Below are positions 7,924 through 63,630 of a DNA stretch of 64,000 nucleotides, piece by piece; position 1 is the stretch's first letter; every line of letters starts with the position of its first letter. Below the pieces are notes generated by a model. The model was not told the origin of the DNA and ran no database searches. It saw only the letters and a list, made by a program, of their open reading frames with translations. The DNA comes from an uncultured delta proteobacterium. GTDB taxonomy: Bacteria; Desulfobacterota; Binatia; Binatales; Binataceae. The stretch lies in the NCBI GenBank assembly GCA_963794325.1, contig CAWCDG010000005.1:96001-160000 (forward strand), written 5' to 3'. The translations under genes and the position numbers were made by a program.

Positions 7924-10661
<2,738 letters not shown>

Positions 10662-56612: not shown

Positions 56613-57219
56613 GTGGAAACAGACCTTAAAGCATTACTTGAAGTTGCGCAGGCGATGGGAAATCTGCGCGCGCCCTTCTATTTCTCGGGCGGATGGGCGA
56701 TCGATCTGCATCTCGGGCGCGTCACGCGGGCGCATCACGATATCGATGTGCTGGTGATGCGGCGCGATCATCTCGAACTGCACAAAGCGCTGAAACAATT
56801 TTCACTGAAAAAGATCATTCCGCATCCGGATGGGATGCCGCCGAATCGTGGGACGACTGTCGGATGGCCTCCCGGCGAGCGGCTCGAACTGCCGGTACAT
56901 CAGATCAATGCGTATCGCGCGGGCGAATCGGAGCCGGCGTTCCAGGTGATGCTCGCGGAGTCGTCGGACAACGAATGGATCTTTCGGCGCAATCCGGAAA
57001 TTCGGATGCCGATCGCGCGGATGGGATTTTATCCGCTGTGGGGGCTGCCGTATCTCGCGCCGGAAATCGTGCTGCTGTTCAAGGCGAAGCATCTCGAAGC
57101 GCGCGATCGAATCGATTTCAAGAATGCGGTTACCGGCGCTGAGCATCGACGCGCGGCGATGGTTGCGCGAAGCAATCGAGAGAACGCATCCGGGTCACGA
57201 ATGGATTAACGCTCTCTAG
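56613..57219 (+). CDS. Nucleotidyltransferase, ANT(2'')/Lnu-like superfamily, frameshift at ~57129
   Basis: GGWAID..LG..TR.H.DID, LAPEIVLLFKAK; shifted frame ends HPGHEWINAL*. Confidence 0.8.
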
Positions 57220-57762: not shown

Positions 57763-57826
57763 TGCAACCTGTAGGTTGCATGTCGTCGCGGATCACGCTA
57801 TTTTAAACGCAACTTGGAGGTTGCGT
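57763..57826 (+). promoter_or_regulatory. Two GCAAC-N6-GTTGC palindromes (probable ArsR operators)
   Basis: tgcaacct-gt-aggttgca (57763-57780) and acgcaac-ttggag-gttgcgt (57807-57826, covering the RBS). Confidence 0.7.
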
Positions 57827-58327
57827 ATGGGTAGCAGCACTGATCGGATTGAGAAGAGTGTACTGTTGCGGGCGCCGCGGGAGCGGGTTTGGCGGGCGAT
57901 TAGCGACTCGAAGCAGTTCGGCAGTTGGTTTGGCGTCGAGTTCGACGCGCCTTTCGTCGCGGGCAAGGCCATTGTTGGAAAGTTGGTTGGGACGACCGTG
58001 GACGCGGAAGTCGCGAAGCGGCAGGAAGCATACAAAGGGCATCGTTTCGAGTTCGTGGTCGATCGGGTCGAGCCGACGCGGCTGTTCTCCTTTCGATGGC
58101 ATCCGTTTGCGATGGATTCAAGCGTCGATTACTCGAAAGAGCCGAGCACATTGGTCGCGTTCGTGCTCGAAGAGGTTGAGGACGGCACGATGCTGACCGT
58201 TACCGAATCGGGGTTCGATCGGATTCCGATCGAGCGGCGCGCCAAAGCATTTGCCGCCAACGAAGGCGGATGGGCGGCGCAGATGAAGCTGATCGAGAAG
58301 TACCTCGCGATGCACGCGCAGGGCTGA
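57827..58327 (+). CDS. SRPBCC domain protein
   Basis: DRIEK...APRERVWRA, FSFRWHP, LTVTESGF, N.GGW; GGAGG RBS. Confidence 0.92.
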   Translation: MGSSTDRIEKSVLLRAPRERVWRAISDSKQFGSWFGVEFDAPFVAGKAIVGKLVGTTVDAEVAKRQEAYKGHRFEFVVDRVEPTRLFSFRWHPFAMDSSVDYSKEPSTLVAFVLEEVEDGTMLTVTESGFDRIPIERRAKAFAANEGGWAAQMKLIEKYLAMHAQG

Positions 58328-58337
58328 GCTGCCGATC

Positions 58338-58691
58338 GTGACACGACTCTCGATTGGCAGCCAAGCGAAACGGGCAGACGCCGCGGCGATCTTCGCGGCG
58401 CTGGGCGACGAGACTCGTTTGCGGATCGTCGCCCGGCTCTGCGAGGAGGGACCGCTGTCGATCATGCGGCTCACCAGCGGAGCGAAGGTCTCGCGCCAGG
58501 CGGTCACGAAGCATCTTCATGCACTCGAAGAGGCCGGGCTCGCGCGCGGCTCGCGGCTGGGACGAACATCCGTCTGGGAGCTGCGTGCGAATCGGCTCGC
58601 GAGTGTGCAGCGGTATCTCGATCAGATTTCGCGCGACTGGGATGCGGCGTTGGGACGGCTGCGGGCGTTTGTCGAGGAAGACGAGCGGTGA
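58338..58691 (+). CDS. ArsR/SmtB family regulator
   Basis: FAALGDETRL, SRQAVTKHL..LE.AGL. Confidence 0.92.
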   Translation: MTRLSIGSQAKRADAAAIFAALGDETRLRIVARLCEEGPLSIMRLTSGAKVSRQAVTKHLHALEEAGLARGSRLGRTSVWELRANRLASVQRYLDQISRDWDAALGRLRAFVEEDER

Positions 58692-58936: not shown

Positions 58937-61210
58937 TTACGCGGCTTGCTTGGTTTCGATTGCCAGGCTCTCTTCCGCGATCGATCCGCGCTTCGAGAAC
59001 AATACCGCGATCGCCAGCGCGATGATCGACACGACCACGATTGCGACGCGCAACGTCGTCACGCCGCTGAGCTCGATCGTCGTGAACGGCGCCGCCAGAA
59101 TCGCAACCAGGTTCATCACCTTGATCATCGGGTTCAACGCCGGGCCCGCCGTATCCTTGAACGGATCGCCGACCGTGTCGCCCACCACCGACGCCTTGTG
59201 CACGTCGGTGCCCTTGCCGCCGAGGAAACCGTCTTCGACTTTTTTCTTGGCGTTATCCCAGTTGGCACCCGCATTCGACATGAACACCGCCATCAACTGG
59301 CCCGTCAGGATGGTGCCGCCGAGGAATCCACCGAGCGCGCCCGCGCCGAGGCCGAAGCCGACCAGCAGCGGCGAGAAGATTGCGAGGATTCCGGGGCCGA
59401 GCAGTTCTTTCTGCGACGCCGCCGTCACGATATCGACACACGCGCTGTAGTCGGGCAGCTCTTTGCCCTCCATGATTCCCGGATGCTCGCGAAGCTGACG
59501 GCGCACCTCGAACACGATCTGATACGCCGCGCGGCTGACCGCTTTAATCGCGAACGAGCTGAACAGGAACGGCACCGCGCCGCCGATCATCAGGCCGACG
59601 AACACGGTCGGCATATTGATCTGCACGCCAATCGATCCGAGATGCGCCTCATCTATAAACGACCGGAACAGCGAGACCGCCGCAAGCACCGCCGTGGCAA
59701 TCGCGAGGCCCTTGGTAAGCGCCTTGGTGGTGTTGCCAATCGCGTCCATCCACGACAGCGTCTTCGACGCCTCCTCCTGATGGATTCCGGCCATCTCGAA
59801 GATGCCATGCGCGTTGTCGGTGATCGGTCCGTAGGTATCCATCGCGAGGATGTAGCCCGTGGTCGTCAGCAGGCCGAGTCCGGTCAGCGCGATTCCGTAA
59901 AACTGCAGCGCGAGCGACTCGTGGAAAATCGCCATCGCGCCGATGATCGCGGCCGCAATCACCAGCAGCGCCCACACCGACGACTCGAGTCCCTCCGCCA
60001 TGCCCGACAGGATCAATGTCGCCGGGCCGGTCCGCGCCGCCATCGCGGTCTCCGTGACCGGGCCCTTGTCCGGATGCGTAAAATAGTTCGTCAGCCACAG
60101 CGTCACGACCGCGAGAAGAATTCCGAGCGACGCGCAGCATGCGAAGCGCCAGTCGGTCGCTCCGGTGCGCGGGTCGTCGAGGTAAAGATAGTTCACGACG
60201 AAGAATCCAATCACCGATGCGACCGCCGAGGTCATGTACCCAATATTGATCGGGCGCATCGGGTCGAGCATTTTGCCCGCCGGTACGCGCACCGCCATGA
60301 TTCCGATAATCGACGAGAACACGCCGACGCCGCGCAGTATCAGCGCGAACATGATCAGCTTGACCGCGAACATGCCCGCGTATTGCCCGTAGGCCGCGAT
60401 AAAGTCCGACTCCTGCAGCGCGTACGCCGCCAGAATGATCGCCGCGACCAGCGTCACCTCGTACGACTCGAACACGTCAGCCGCCATGCCAGCGCAGTCG
60501 CCGACGTTGTCGCCAACGTTATCGGCGATCGTCGCGGGATTGCGCGGGTCATCCTCCGGTAGATCCTGCTCGATCTTGCCGACCAGGTCGCCGCCTACGT
60601 CAGCCGCCTTGGTGTAGATTCCGCCGCCGACGCGCATGAACAATGCCGCCAGCGATCCACCGAAGCCGAAGCCGACCAGGACCTTCATCGCGTTCTCGCG
60701 GAAGACCAAAAAGATGATGGTCGCGCCGAGCAATCCCAGCCCAACCGTGAACATGCCCGAGACGCCGCCCGCCTTGAATGCGAGTTCCATCGCGTCCTTG
60801 AAGCTGGTGAGCGCGGCGTTGGCGCTGCGGACGTTGCCCTTGACCGCGAGCCACATCCCGACGTAGCCGGCGCCGTATGATGCGGCGACACCCATCAGGA
60901 ATGCAATCGAGATTCCCAGCGGCAGGTACAGGCCCTGGTAAACGTTGCGGTACATGAAAAAGAGCGCGAAAAAAATCGCGCCGACGAACCAGATCATGGT
61001 TTTGACCTGGCGTCCGAGGTAGGCCATCGCGCCGACCTCGATCGCATCGGACACGTCGGTCAGTGATTTAGGTCCGGGGTCGGCGGCCAGCACTACGCGG
61101 ATCAACACGACACCGTAGGCCAGCGCGACCAGCGCCGAGACCAGCACCAGCCACAGGATCATGACCTGTCCGCTGGTTAAAGTGGGCAGAACGATATTCG
61201 CTTCGCTCAT
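58937..61210 (-). CDS. hppA: Membrane ion-translocating pyrophosphatase, K+-independent type
   Basis: GGGIYTKAADVG.DLVGK.E, DNVGDNVGD, GNTTKA, GDTVGDPFKD. Confidence 0.95.
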   Translation of the reverse strand: MSEANIVLPTLTSGQVMILWLVLVSALVALAYGVVLIRVVLAADPGPKSLTDVSDAIEVGAMAYLGRQVKTMIWFVGAIFFALFFMYRNVYQGLYLPLGISIAFLMGVAASYGAGYVGMWLAVKGNVRSANAALTSFKDAMELAFKAGGVSGMFTVGLGLLGATIIFLVFRENAMKVLVGFGFGGSLAALFMRVGGGIYTKAADVGGDLVGKIEQDLPEDDPRNPATIADNVGDNVGDCAGMAADVFESYEVTLVAAIILAAYALQESDFIAAYGQYAGMFAVKLIMFALILRGVGVFSSIIGIMAVRVPAGKMLDPMRPINIGYMTSAVASVIGFFVVNYLYLDDPRTGATDWRFACCASLGILLAVVTLWLTNYFTHPDKGPVTETAMAARTGPATLILSGMAEGLESSVWALLVIAAAIIGAMAIFHESLALQFYGIALTGLGLLTTTGYILAMDTYGPITDNAHGIFEMAGIHQEEASKTLSWMDAIGNTTKALTKGLAIATAVLAAVSLFRSFIDEAHLGSIGVQINMPTVFVGLMIGGAVPFLFSSFAIKAVSRAAYQIVFEVRRQLREHPGIMEGKELPDYSACVDIVTAASQKELLGPGILAIFSPLLVGFGLGAGALGGFLGGTILTGQLMAVFMSNAGANWDNAKKKVEDGFLGGKGTDVHKASVVGDTVGDPFKDTAGPALNPMIKVMNLVAILAAPFTTIELSGVTTLRVAIVVVSIIALAIAVLFSKRGSIAEESLAIETKQAA

Positions 61211-61391: not shown

Positions 61392-61419
61392 AGGCCCCGG
61401 CGCGACGGCCGGGGCCTTT
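61392..61419. terminator. Intrinsic terminator-like hairpin
   Basis: aggccccggc-gcgacg-gccggggcct. Confidence 0.7.
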
Positions 61420-61446
61420 GAGATCCTGACGATTCAAACCTTCAGA

Positions 61447-62421
61447 TCACGGCGCTTTCAGGTTCACGTTGGCGCACGGTCCATCGACAACCGTCTGCAC
61501 CAGGTTGGTGCCAGAGTTTTTCTGCGCTTTCAGCGATGCAGTGCTGCCGCGGCAATTCATAGTTACGCCGTCGGAGTGATTCTTGCTCGCAGTCACGCCG
61601 GAAATGATGCCAAATCTTCCGGGGCCGAAATCGATACCGGTCCCCGCGTTGCCGGTCGATTTGCTCGCCGTGACCATGTTCTCGCTGCTCGACGGGAACT
61701 CGATTCCGTCGTCCCCATTGCCGGATATGGTTGATTTGATAACGCCATTGTCGTCGCTGGCCAGTTCGACGCCGACGGAGGAGTTTTTCTGGATTTTGCT
61801 GCTAACCACGAAGCTGCAGCAATCTGACATTTCCACGCCGACGCCGGTGTTTTTGCTGACCGTGCTTCCGACCAACGTATTGCAGCAGCTCGTGATAACG
61901 ATTCCGCCACCGTGGTTACCGTTAGCCTGGACCTTGGTCAAACTGCTGTCGTCCGAGAGTATGTGGATGCCGACGCCACCGTTGTTGTTCGAGGTGACCG
62001 AGCTCAGCGTGTTGCAACACTCTTTGATGAGGATACCGTCACCGGTGTTATTCGAGGTATTGAGGTTGGAAATTATCGCACTGCCCGAGGTGGGCAGGCT
62101 GACGCCCGAGGCAAAGTTGCGGATTTTGCCGTTGGCGATGATTGCGTTATCGCGATCGCCGCCGTCGTCGACGATCCCGGAACCGCTGCCGTTGCCAGTA
62201 ATGGTCTTTCCATTCAAATCGATCGCTACATTGTCTGCGGCAATTATCAGGCAGTCGGTGGTGGCGCTAAGGTTGGTGGTCAGCACGTAATTCCCCGGCG
62301 CCGCGAGCGTTCCGCACATGGACACCATGGTGCTTGCCGTCGCGCGCCCGCAGAGGCCGCCAATCAGCAACATCGCAAATAGCGCAGCGGTAAGCCGCCG
62401 CGCCGAAAACTCGATATTCAT
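61447..62421 (-). CDS. Secreted right-handed beta-helix repeat protein with CC/DD rungs
   Basis: GGAGG RBS, signal peptide, CG.L..PG.Y.L..NL cap, N...GI repeats. Confidence 0.85.
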   Translation of the reverse strand: MNIEFSARRLTAALFAMLLIGGLCGRATASTMVSMCGTLAAPGNYVLTTNLSATTDCLIIAADNVAIDLNGKTITGNGSGSGIVDDGGDRDNAIIANGKIRNFASGVSLPTSGSAIISNLNTSNNTGDGILIKECCNTLSSVTSNNNGGVGIHILSDDSSLTKVQANGNHGGGIVITSCCNTLVGSTVSKNTGVGVEMSDCCSFVVSSKIQKNSSVGVELASDDNGVIKSTISGNGDDGIEFPSSSENMVTASKSTGNAGTGIDFGPGRFGIISGVTASKNHSDGVTMNCRGSTASLKAQKNSGTNLVQTVVDGPCANVNLKAP

Positions 62422-62521
62422 AAGTCCCCTCCCGTTGATGATCCCGAACGGTTCATGCATACGCCCCGGGATCAGGTCCGAACATCTGATGCATTGGTTC
62501 ATCGTCTTCAGCCCAGCCGTC

Positions 62522-63490
62522 CTAATTCAGCTTGTTGTTCAGCTGGGTGCAGGTGCCGCCAGAGGTCGACAATGGACCGCCGTTGTTGTTTCTGGTCGTC
62601 AGGCCAGTGATCGCGCCCGGACATTCCACGCTGGCGCCCGCGCCCTGATTTCCACTGGCTACACTGCTCGTGATCTGATTGTCAGTGCCGGCCAGCAAAA
62701 TCCCGTTGCCGGTGTTGCTGCTGGCGTTGGTGCGGGTGACAAGATTGTCGCTGTTGGTGAGATTCGCTCCGTTGCCGTGGTTAAGCGCGACAGTGCTTTC
62801 GATGACGAAGTTGCAGCATCCCGACAGGGCGACACCGTCGGCACTGTTGCTCTGCACTTTGCTGGAAATCACGAAGTTGCAGCAATCGTTTCCAGACACC
62901 CCGGTCGCGCCATTGCCGGAAACGGTACTGTTGGAGACGGTTGTGCAACAACCAGTCGCGATTATGCCGCCGCCTGGGCCGTTGTGGTTCACCTGAACGT
63001 TGTTCAGCGTGTAGCAGCAACTCAGGGCCATAATTCCGGTGGTGCCGTTACTGTTCGTCGTTACGGAATCGAGCGTGCCACAGCACTCACCCACCAGGAT
63101 CCCGGTCGCGGTGTTATTTGACGAATCGACGTTGCGGATCACCACACAGCATGAGGTGTCGAGTCCGATGCCGACGCTGAAGTTGCGAATCTTGCCGTTC
63201 GCAATTGCCATCGACTCGAAGTTGCCGCCGCCGTCGGAGATTCCGTCGCCGGTGCCGTTACCTGTGATGGTGTGCCCTTTCATGTCGAGCGAAACGCCTT
63301 CGCTGCCGATGACGATACAGGTACCCGTCGATGTCAGATTCTTCGTCAGGAAATAATTCCCCGCCGCAGACAACGTCCCGCAGGCTGATACTGCGGTGTC
63401 GGCGCGGGATGGCGACGAGGCCAACACCAGCAGCGTCAACGCGCCCAATACGCCGACAGCGTATCCTCTGAAACCCCTCTCGAATGACAT
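62522..63490 (-). CDS. Secreted right-handed beta-helix repeat protein with six CC rungs
   Basis: GGAGG RBS, signal peptide, same cap, ~22-aa repeats. Confidence 0.87.
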   Translation of the reverse strand: MSFERGFRGYAVGVLGALTLLVLASSPSRADTAVSACGTLSAAGNYFLTKNLTSTGTCIVIGSEGVSLDMKGHTITGNGTGDGISDGGGNFESMAIANGKIRNFSVGIGLDTSCCVVIRNVDSSNNTATGILVGECCGTLDSVTTNSNGTTGIMALSCCYTLNNVQVNHNGPGGGIIATGCCTTVSNSTVSGNGATGVSGNDCCNFVISSKVQSNSADGVALSGCCNFVIESTVALNHGNGANLTNSDNLVTRTNASSNTGNGILLAGTDNQITSSVASGNQGAGASVECPGAITGLTTRNNNGGPLSTSGGTCTQLNNKLN

Positions 63491-63630
63491 AGTTCCTCCC
63501 CTGACCGCTCTGCGGAAATTGGCGCTAAATCGAATTTCGTAGAAGCGCACGAAGGTGAAGCGAACTCGAATGCGCCGCGAGCGGTCGCCAGAGCTTATGC
63601 GCGACGTCGAGGCGATTGCAACTCAGATAA

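Follow-up and report, generated by a model that had tools for sequence, protein, structure and literature searches.

Here we describe two adjacent genes, A and B, in a 64,000-nucleotide stretch of DNA from an uncultured delta proteobacterium (positions 96,001 to 160,000 of the forward strand of contig CAWCDG010000005.1, assembly GCA_963794325.1; hereafter the window, whose own numbering we use throughout), which encode paralogous right-handed beta-helix proteins, predicted to be secreted, with a ladder of cysteine and aspartate pairs along the helix. From their translations, Pfam matches and AlphaFold2 models, gene A (62522..63490, minus strand) encodes a 322-residue protein with Cys-Cys (CC) on six consecutive rungs, and gene B (61447..62421, minus strand) a 324-residue paralog with a mixed ladder of CC and Asp-Asp (DD); the two share 46% identity over 295 residues (BLASTP, E 5e-72). 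They are co-oriented with 100 nucleotides between them, and each has a GGAGG-type ribosome-binding site, GGAGG lying 5' of the ATG in A. A terminator-like hairpin 3' of B (61392..61417, minus strand), with a 10-pair stem of which 9 pairs are G-C and then a T-rich tail, is the end of the two-gene unit. Signal-peptide-like N-termini, read by eye, are present on both proteins: a predicted Sec signal peptide at residues 1-30 of A that ends in SRA (63401..63490, minus strand; AlphaFold2 predicted local distance difference test score, pLDDT, below 50 at residues 1-26), and one at residues 1-29 of B that ends in ATA (62335..62421, minus strand). Twin-arginine (Tat) export of B was rejected because the RR at residues 8-9 of its signal is not conserved over seven genomes, reading QR, RG or RS; Sec export is therefore assumed for B, and both proteins are probably exported by this route.

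The CC ladder of A (62813..63151, minus strand) consists of the Cys pairs 114/115, 136/137, 158/159, 181/182, 203/204 and 225/226, followed at rung 7 (residue 247) by SD. A BLASTP alignment places the dipeptides of A and B in the same columns, rung for rung, so that the CC pairs of A on rungs 1 to 6 can be read directly against the minus-strand sites of B. Rung 1 of B is GS (62080..62085), and rung 2 is KE-CC (residues 135-136, TGT TGC, 62014..62019), with CC in 59/59 B-type sequences. Rung 3 is LS-DD (residues 157-158, GAC GAC, 61948..61953; DD in 48/59), rung 4 is TS-CC (residues 179-180, 61882..61887; CC in 47/59 and DD in 5) and rung 5 is SD-CC (residues 201-202, 61816..61821; CC in 34/59, DD in 8 and GD in 6). 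Rung 6 is AS-DD (residues 223-224, 61750..61755), where the 59 B-type sequences have DD 23 times, GD 14, ED 7 and CC 7, and rung 7 is SS-SE (residues 246-247, 61681..61686), opposite the SD of A. Every dipeptide that the initial annotation had read from B (KECC, LSDD, TSCC, SDCC, ASDD and SSE) is in the translation as listed, and the pattern it gave for the neighbouring protein, CC six times and then SD, matches A in the same BLASTP columns; its list omitted one rung, the TS-GS of B opposite the first TS-CC of A. When the residues were shuffled, the six CC of A were reached in 5 of 100000 shuffles, the three CC of B in 298 of 100000 and the four DD of B in 1052 of 100000. Furthermore, in the 161 relatives of at least 280 residues with at least one CC, the spacing from one CC to the next is exactly 22 residues in 246 of 362 cases. 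No DNA tandem repeat was found in 61400-63550, which rejects a recent DNA duplication as the source of this period; the 22-residue period is thus a property of the protein fold.

Both proteins match the Pfam family Beta_helix (PF13229) above its cut-off of 25.9 bits (B 59.7 bits, A 48.1 bits) and, at the level of the repeat only, Pfam NosD (B 38.6 bits, A 25.0 bits; cut-off 23.6). AlphaFold2 models built with a 99-sequence alignment have mean pLDDT values of 93.2 for B and 92.8 for A, and both show a periodic right-handed parallel helix with three strands per 22-residue rung. Foldseek assigned these models a probability of 1.00 of matching solved beta-helices, and ESM Atlas matches fall only in clusters of the NosD/Beta_helix type. 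A and B have conserved Gly and Asn ladders and capped ends, with two invariant cysteines apiece in the N-terminal and the C-terminal cap. In the B model the dipeptide lies in a five-residue turn from strand 1 (G-I-x-L) to strand 2, for example between E130-132 and E138-140 (hereafter the T1 turn). Since it occupies the same turn of every rung, successive dipeptides align as a ridge along the helix. Besides CC, the residues invariant across the family are Gly, Asn, the cap cysteines and two N-terminal aspartates, and the family alignment holds no conserved His or Met near the CC ridge.

Two other stretches of these proteins are worth recording. In both paralogs the best-conserved rung, outward-facing residues included, is rung 1 just after the dipeptide (V/I-I-R/S-N-V/L-D/N-S/T-S; residues 116-124 of A, window about 63119-63145, and residues 115-123 of B), and the N-terminal cap with invariant D68 and D85 (B numbering) is common to relatives without CC. 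It is possible that a functional site could lie in this rung 1/N-terminal cap region instead of the CC ridge. At the other end, most family members carry C-x-N-[LV]-x-[NL]-K-A-P after the last cap cysteine (window 61447-61476 in B; also in relatives P0127, P0090, P0091 and P0111), and A-type proteins end instead in CTQLNNKL(N). This C-x-N-[LV]-x-[NL]-K-A-P tail matched no known motif and may be a sorting or recognition tail.

To place the ladder in its family, relatives were collected with a word-based search (123) and a full HMMER search (2282), in which 36 of the 2282 representative matches reach an E-value of 1e-30 or better, the CC-ladder subfamily being a minor fraction of the total; among the matches listed, CC ladders are concentrated in the top-scoring members. 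Named relatives belong to Candidatus Binatus, and the seven related genome loci that we compared come from Binatus or 'uncultured delta proteobacterium' metagenome-assembled genomes. All six CC pairs are retained in 21 of the 23 full-length A-type orthologs (the exceptions are P0083 and P0084), B-type orthologs have one to four CC rungs, and a third type of relative has a single CC, on rung 3. Deeper clades carry five to eight CC rungs, with up to 8 stacked at 22-residue spacing in P0127, and more distant relatives have no CC and only the four cap cysteines.

Across these proteins, cysteine at the dipeptide site is essentially always paired. Rungs were cut from all fetched proteins by a rung profile in which the two test positions were masked, giving 1441 rung matches, with a strict set of 822 and a relaxed set of 1127; the counts below include many related sequences and are inflated relative to independent events. 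In the strict set, the 741 rungs of CC-family proteins comprise 398 with CC, 97 with DD, 35 with GD and 5 with one Cys. The relaxed set gives 460 CC, 101 DD, 54 GD and 23 single-Cys rungs among 935, and 17 of those 23 are the CP motif of the C-terminal cap. In relatives without CC, the 192 rungs of the relaxed set have CC 0 times, DD once and one Cys 9 times, and their two turn positions are mostly G, S, D, T or N. DD thus accounts for 101 of the 475 non-CC rungs in CC-ladder proteins versus 1 of 192 in relatives without CC, so that the dipeptide frequencies differ from those of CC-free beta-helix turns and the caveat of the initial annotation, that DD may be an ordinary turn, is not borne out; its refuting condition on this point, frequencies like those of generic beta-helix turns, is contradicted. 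It should be mentioned that GD, SD, ED, TD and RD are all common at the site as well, meaning that Asp is no obligate pair, and that D or E directly precedes CC in 34% of 416 distinct CC rungs.

Rungs also gain and lose CC independently of one another. Of the 314 CC rungs, 108 stand alone, with no CC on the rung before or after, and 77 of 102 proteins contain a rung of this kind. The CC rungs fall into 235 consecutive runs, 161 of odd and 74 of even length, with 147 singletons; runs of six occur 37 times. Indeed, the invariant CC on rung 2 of B persists though its flanking rungs (G-x and DD) have no Cys. For INDEPENDENCE and its recurrence, a tree of the 102 full-length members requires a minimum of 9, 15 and 7 CC/non-CC changes at rungs 4, 5 and 6, and the tree of the 59 B-type sequences at least 7 at rung 4 and at least 12 at rung 5. 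Sister sequences with 87-92% identity have CC opposite GG or GD, and never a half-lost pair.

The exchange of CC with DD that the initial annotation had noticed between two paralogs is accordingly real, recurrent and specific to this family: within the seven Binatus genomes, rung 4 of B is DD at loci L004 and L006 and rung 5 is DD at L005, with unchanged flanks, and between L002 and L004 CC stands against DD with identical flanking residues. These unchanged flanks rule out gene conversion of whole rungs as the cause, and a codon path of TGC -> GGC -> GAC fits; on this path the GG and GD dipeptides look like intermediates between CC and DD.

The cysteines of A are under constraint at the protein level. 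In 21 A-type sequences (leaving out P0083 and P0084) the two Cys columns have zero entropy, as do the structural Gly and Asn columns, and the Cys codons vary synonymously between TGC and TGT among the seven genomes. The median ratio of nonsynonymous to synonymous substitution (dN/dS) is 0.31 for A and 0.36 for B, compared with 0.05 for the neighbouring H+-translocating pyrophosphatase (H+-PPase). Together with the synonymous Cys codons, these values indicate that A and B are maintained yet fast-evolving; exported proteins often evolve fast.

With moderate confidence, we propose that each CC is a self-contained unit whose two cysteines are bonded to one another as a vicinal disulfide that staples the exposed turn. 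Directly observed are the anatomy of the ladder, the rule that Cys comes in pairs, the independent behaviour of the rungs, the repeated exchange and the purifying selection; the disulfide itself, its vicinal geometry and export are inferred. CC reads as a closed unit because its cysteines are lost jointly, because lone CC rungs are kept, because of the run lengths, because the replacements are polar and because the proteins appear to be exported. That the two sequence-adjacent cysteines are kept as a unit, as expected of a vicinal turn, is seen in the 398 CC against 5 single-Cys cells of the strict set, and with odd runs outnumbering even ones and so many singletons, obligatory rung-to-rung disulfides do not fit. 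A and B are a conserved pair of small, capped right-handed beta-helix proteins of Candidatus Binatus, of about 11 rungs of 22 residues and probably exported by Sec, with the dipeptides of their T1 turns stacked into a ridge along the helix. In this scheme the vicinal disulfide would form after export, in the oxidising periplasm, and every disulfide of the protein would join sequence-consecutive cysteines, namely those paired in the N-cap, in each CC and in the C-cap. DsbA prefers joining cysteines that are consecutive in sequence. Loss of a staple would remove both cysteines together by way of Gly (TGC -> GGC -> GAC), and the favoured end state after loss would be an acidic turn, S-D-D-N/S. 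A retains the full six-rung ridge, and B retains rung 2 and holds DD at rung 3 while its rungs 4-6 flip between the two states. As for what the pair does, our best guess is that it forms a stable binding scaffold, extracellular or periplasmic, and not an enzyme. PMC8262859 describes the Binatales as aerobic, methylotrophic bacteria of acidic soils.

Several points weigh against such staples. Stability alone leaves the retention of all six pairs in A (21/23) unexplained, since B, with the same fold and compartment, tolerates their loss; nor does it account for DD rather than G/S/N turns as the replacement (21% versus 0.5%). Vicinal disulfides are rare and strained, and the searched literature offers no precedent for six to eight in a row. 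Additionally, DSSP puts the CC of rungs 2 and 3 of A in bridged strands (E136-141 and E158-163), which in the model agrees more with stacking in register than with a tight vicinal turn.

A and B are adjacent in 7/7 related genome loci, and P0123 (615 residues) is an A-B fusion in gene order: its N-terminal half shares 57% identity with A and its C-terminal half 49% with B, and the junction lacks a second signal peptide. It is a single record on a 2450-nucleotide contig. P0124, P0164 and P0183 are likewise two-domain forms, and together with the P0123 fusion they argue that the two helices act together. A search for longer or fused forms of B gave 13 matches, all distant multidomain beta-helix proteins (best E 1e-10). 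At L007 (7367-9403) frame shifts break both A and B, and at L004 (about 8900-8990) an out-of-frame tail replaces the last ~25 residues of B; these lesions may be real decay or long-read assembly errors.

In the window the neighbours of the pair are the H+-PPase, a luciferase-like oxidoreductase, an ArsR-type regulator, an AHSA1-like protein, a glyoxalase-fold protein and a partial aminoglycoside-adenylyltransferase-like protein, and across the seven loci only A, B and the pyrophosphatase are conserved, the genes upstream of A varying from locus to locus. Immediately downstream of B comes the H+-PPase (58937-61210, minus strand; Pfam H_PPase, E 4e-238), which follows the pair in 5/7 loci; no match to it was found inside the 16.7-kb locus L005, and the contig of L007 stops just past B. 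Across loci it is 95-97% identical, compared with 67-79% for A and B, and the terminator stands between it and B. An open reading frame at 56613-57209 (plus strand) covers the first 59 of 149 positions of PF10706 (aminoglycoside-2''-adenylyltransferase; E 6.9e-10) and is probably a generic nucleotidyltransferase fold. At 57776-58691 (plus strand) an AHSA1/SRPBCC-like gene is followed directly by the ArsR-type helix-turn-helix regulator; the AHSA1-like gene adjoins the pyrophosphatase in L001 and L003, where the regulator is unmatched, and the ArsR/AHSA1 pair is not retained beside A-B across loci. No nos genes or metal-resistance genes are among the window neighbours of A-B, nosZ, nosF, nosY and nosL are absent near the pair in the window and in the seven loci, and no polysaccharide genes, including alginate genes, lie near A-B. 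A search for riboswitches or other Rfam elements returned only the terminator hairpin (E 0.51), and a promoter scan gave 0 sites. Conserved functional neighbours were thus rejected, the H+-PPase alone being kept, beyond the terminator, with differing genes upstream; the gene context provides no functional hint and no pointer to metals.

It is possible, if somewhat unlikely, that a polysaccharide or another extracellular polymer is the ligand of the T1 ridge and binds along this edge. The vicinal disulfides would here act as flat apolar platforms for sugar rings and the conserved DD of B, with CC rungs on both sides, as a Ca2+ site or an acid/base pair, with A a binder and B a binder or an enzyme, both working together; the adjacency of A and B in all seven genomes and their fusion in P0123 agree with such a partnership. 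All of the nearest solved folds belong to carbohydrate-active proteins (mannuronan epimerases, lyases, glucanases and tailspikes), and the six CC of A with the CC-DD-CC of B (rungs 2-4) exceed the constraint needed for simple stapling. The review PMC12102755 reports that sugar rings are bound on their undecorated face by vicinal disulfides and divalent cations by Asp-cis-Asp pairs, and that carbohydrate enzymes hold most cases of both. DD is also strongly enriched over relatives without CC. The catalytic DPHD motif of AlgG and AlgE4 would lie on the first strand, just before the T1 turn. Neither A nor B, however, has a catalytic motif of the known beta-helix enzymes: no DPH string occurs in either, and the score with the AlgG equivalog is 16.1 bits where 700 is the cut-off. 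Furthermore, the invariant residues besides CC are those of the fold and caps and two N-terminal aspartates, polysaccharide genes are missing nearby, and the free flipping of rungs 4-6 in B would be odd for a defined binding site. What keeps polymer binding alive is the strict six-rung conservation of A and the preference for DD, which stability does not explain.

Alternatively, the ridge may be a functional linear array, a continuous sulfur stripe of up to eight stacked vicinal dithiol or disulfide pairs, which we consider unlikely. Rungs in known beta-helices are spaced about 4.8 Å apart. Binding of a polymer or of soft-metal ions in a row is one possible use of such a stripe, and a multi-electron redox reservoir another. 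CC and DD could replace each other here because both would keep the turn in the same strained shape, possibly with a cis-peptide, CC by an S-S bond and DD by a bound divalent cation. The all-sulfur A and B, in which sulfur alternates with carboxylate, would then be halves of one device, as the P0123 fusion suggests.

The initial annotation had taken the CC/DD swap to favour metal ligands over purely structural disulfides. Worked out further, this reading makes the Cys pairs reduced thiolate ligands and the Asp pairs carboxylate ligands: A would bind soft metals such as Cu(I) along a thiolate ridge, and B other metals or a mixture, so as to store, detoxify or template. We find this quite improbable. 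CC with its frequent preceding D or E is compatible with metal sites, the DD enrichment is family-specific, and Pfam NosD carries a legacy 'copper-binding' name. Methanotrophs have Cys-lined copper storage proteins. In PMC8262859, copper membrane monooxygenases are reported in 9 of 48 Binatales genomes. Against metal ligation, cysteines are kept or lost as a pair (398 versus 5), an all-or-none loss that a disulfide predicts, while a metal site should sometimes tolerate a change of a single ligand; isolated CC rungs persist (108 of 314); and Asp at the site is no obligate pair. The export-like N-termini, which lack a conserved twin-arginine, imply folding in an oxidising compartment, and there is no conserved His or Met near the ridge. 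The neighbouring genes, with an ArsR/AHSA1 pair that does not stay beside A-B, are uninformative on metals, and the locus has no nos genes, metal-resistance genes or riboswitch. Finally, it is improbable that the cysteines are left unpaired within CC and form two stacked columns of inter-rung disulfides or of unbonded internal Cys ladders as in FdlA and InlJ: the in-register, bridged CC of rungs 2-3 of A, the 37 runs of six and the single-Cys ladders documented inside beta-helices in PMC9410043 would agree with it, but singletons make up 147 of 235 runs and there are more odd runs than even (161 versus 74), so that most CC rungs lack a partner, the DD, GD and GE replacements point to a solvent-exposed rather than a core position, and a free-Cys ladder does not require joint loss of both cysteines.

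Vicinal disulfides are among the rarest covalent protein motifs, and the described cases, in the sources consulted, are single sites. If each CC of A and B is indeed such a staple, their coil-by-coil repeat and recurrent swap for an Asp pair would amount to a natural experiment on how a strained turn is stabilised, by bond, ion or charge, and would offer a protein-design scaffold whose staples can be put in or taken out one rung at a time. A ridge that binds a polymer or metal would be a new binding surface on one of the commonest secreted folds, and would provide an initial clue to the function of this conserved gene pair in the Binatales, an abundant uncultured soil group. If the pairs are plain stabilising staples, they are a modest structural curiosity.

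Among known systems, the closest structural matches are the mannuronan C5-epimerases AlgE4, AlgE6 (A-module) and AlgG, with TM-scores normalised to the query of 0.72-0.75 for the B model. In a profile search of PDB sequences AlgG was the only family with a full-sequence E-value below 0.001 (E 4e-5), IceA2 was a marginal match (E 0.0033), and no CC ladder occurred in any of the matches. Sequence identity between the epimerases and A/B is only 12-16%, the NCBIfam AlgG equivalog gives 16.1 bits for B against a cut-off of 700 and no match for A, neither A nor B contains the DPH of the catalytic epimerase motif DPHD/E, and the epimerases have no CC ladder in the stretch aligned to A/B. The equivalog score and the missing DPH motif led us to reject A and B as mannuronan epimerases. 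NosD is the periplasmic beta-helix of NosDFY nitrous-oxide-reductase maturation, and its structure in NosDFYL (7osf) is a weak fold match to the A and B models. NosD is encoded together with nosZ, nosF, nosY and nosL; without nos genes around A and B, we reject them as NosD orthologs. Their match to the NosD profile is due to the shared repeat, not to orthology.

The other comparisons concern the cysteines. Vicinal disulfide turns, for example that of the arabinofuranosidase 1wd4, resemble A and B, if these are exported as predicted, in placing adjacent cysteines in a turn of an exported carbohydrate-type fold, and they are known, from PMC12102755, to bind ligands or sugars, to stabilise and to switch conformation. 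The known cases described there are single sites, whereas up to 8 pairs, each a putative vicinal disulfide, are stacked in the present family. In FdlA, according to PMC9410043, one unbonded Cys per coil lies inside the helix at the T2-PB3 junction; this ladder is like that of A and B in that Cys recurs at the same position of successive coils, but A and B have two Cys per coil, in the strand 1-2 turn, replaceable by DD, GD or GE. InlJ, known to us through a reference title, is a single-cysteine ladder solenoid. The searched literature, with supplements and the 2017 vicinal-disulfide survey outside its scope, describes single-Cys ladders and isolated vicinal disulfides and holds no description of a stacked CC ladder on a beta-helix. 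A and B belong to the PbH1/Beta_helix superfamily, sharing with PF13229 PbH1 proteins the three strands per 22-residue rung, the Gly/Asn ladders and the capped ends; unlike A and B, relatives without CC have G, S, D or N at the turn positions (CC 0/192, DD 1/192), and it is in this respect that the CC/DD ladder is an unusual variant of a common fold.

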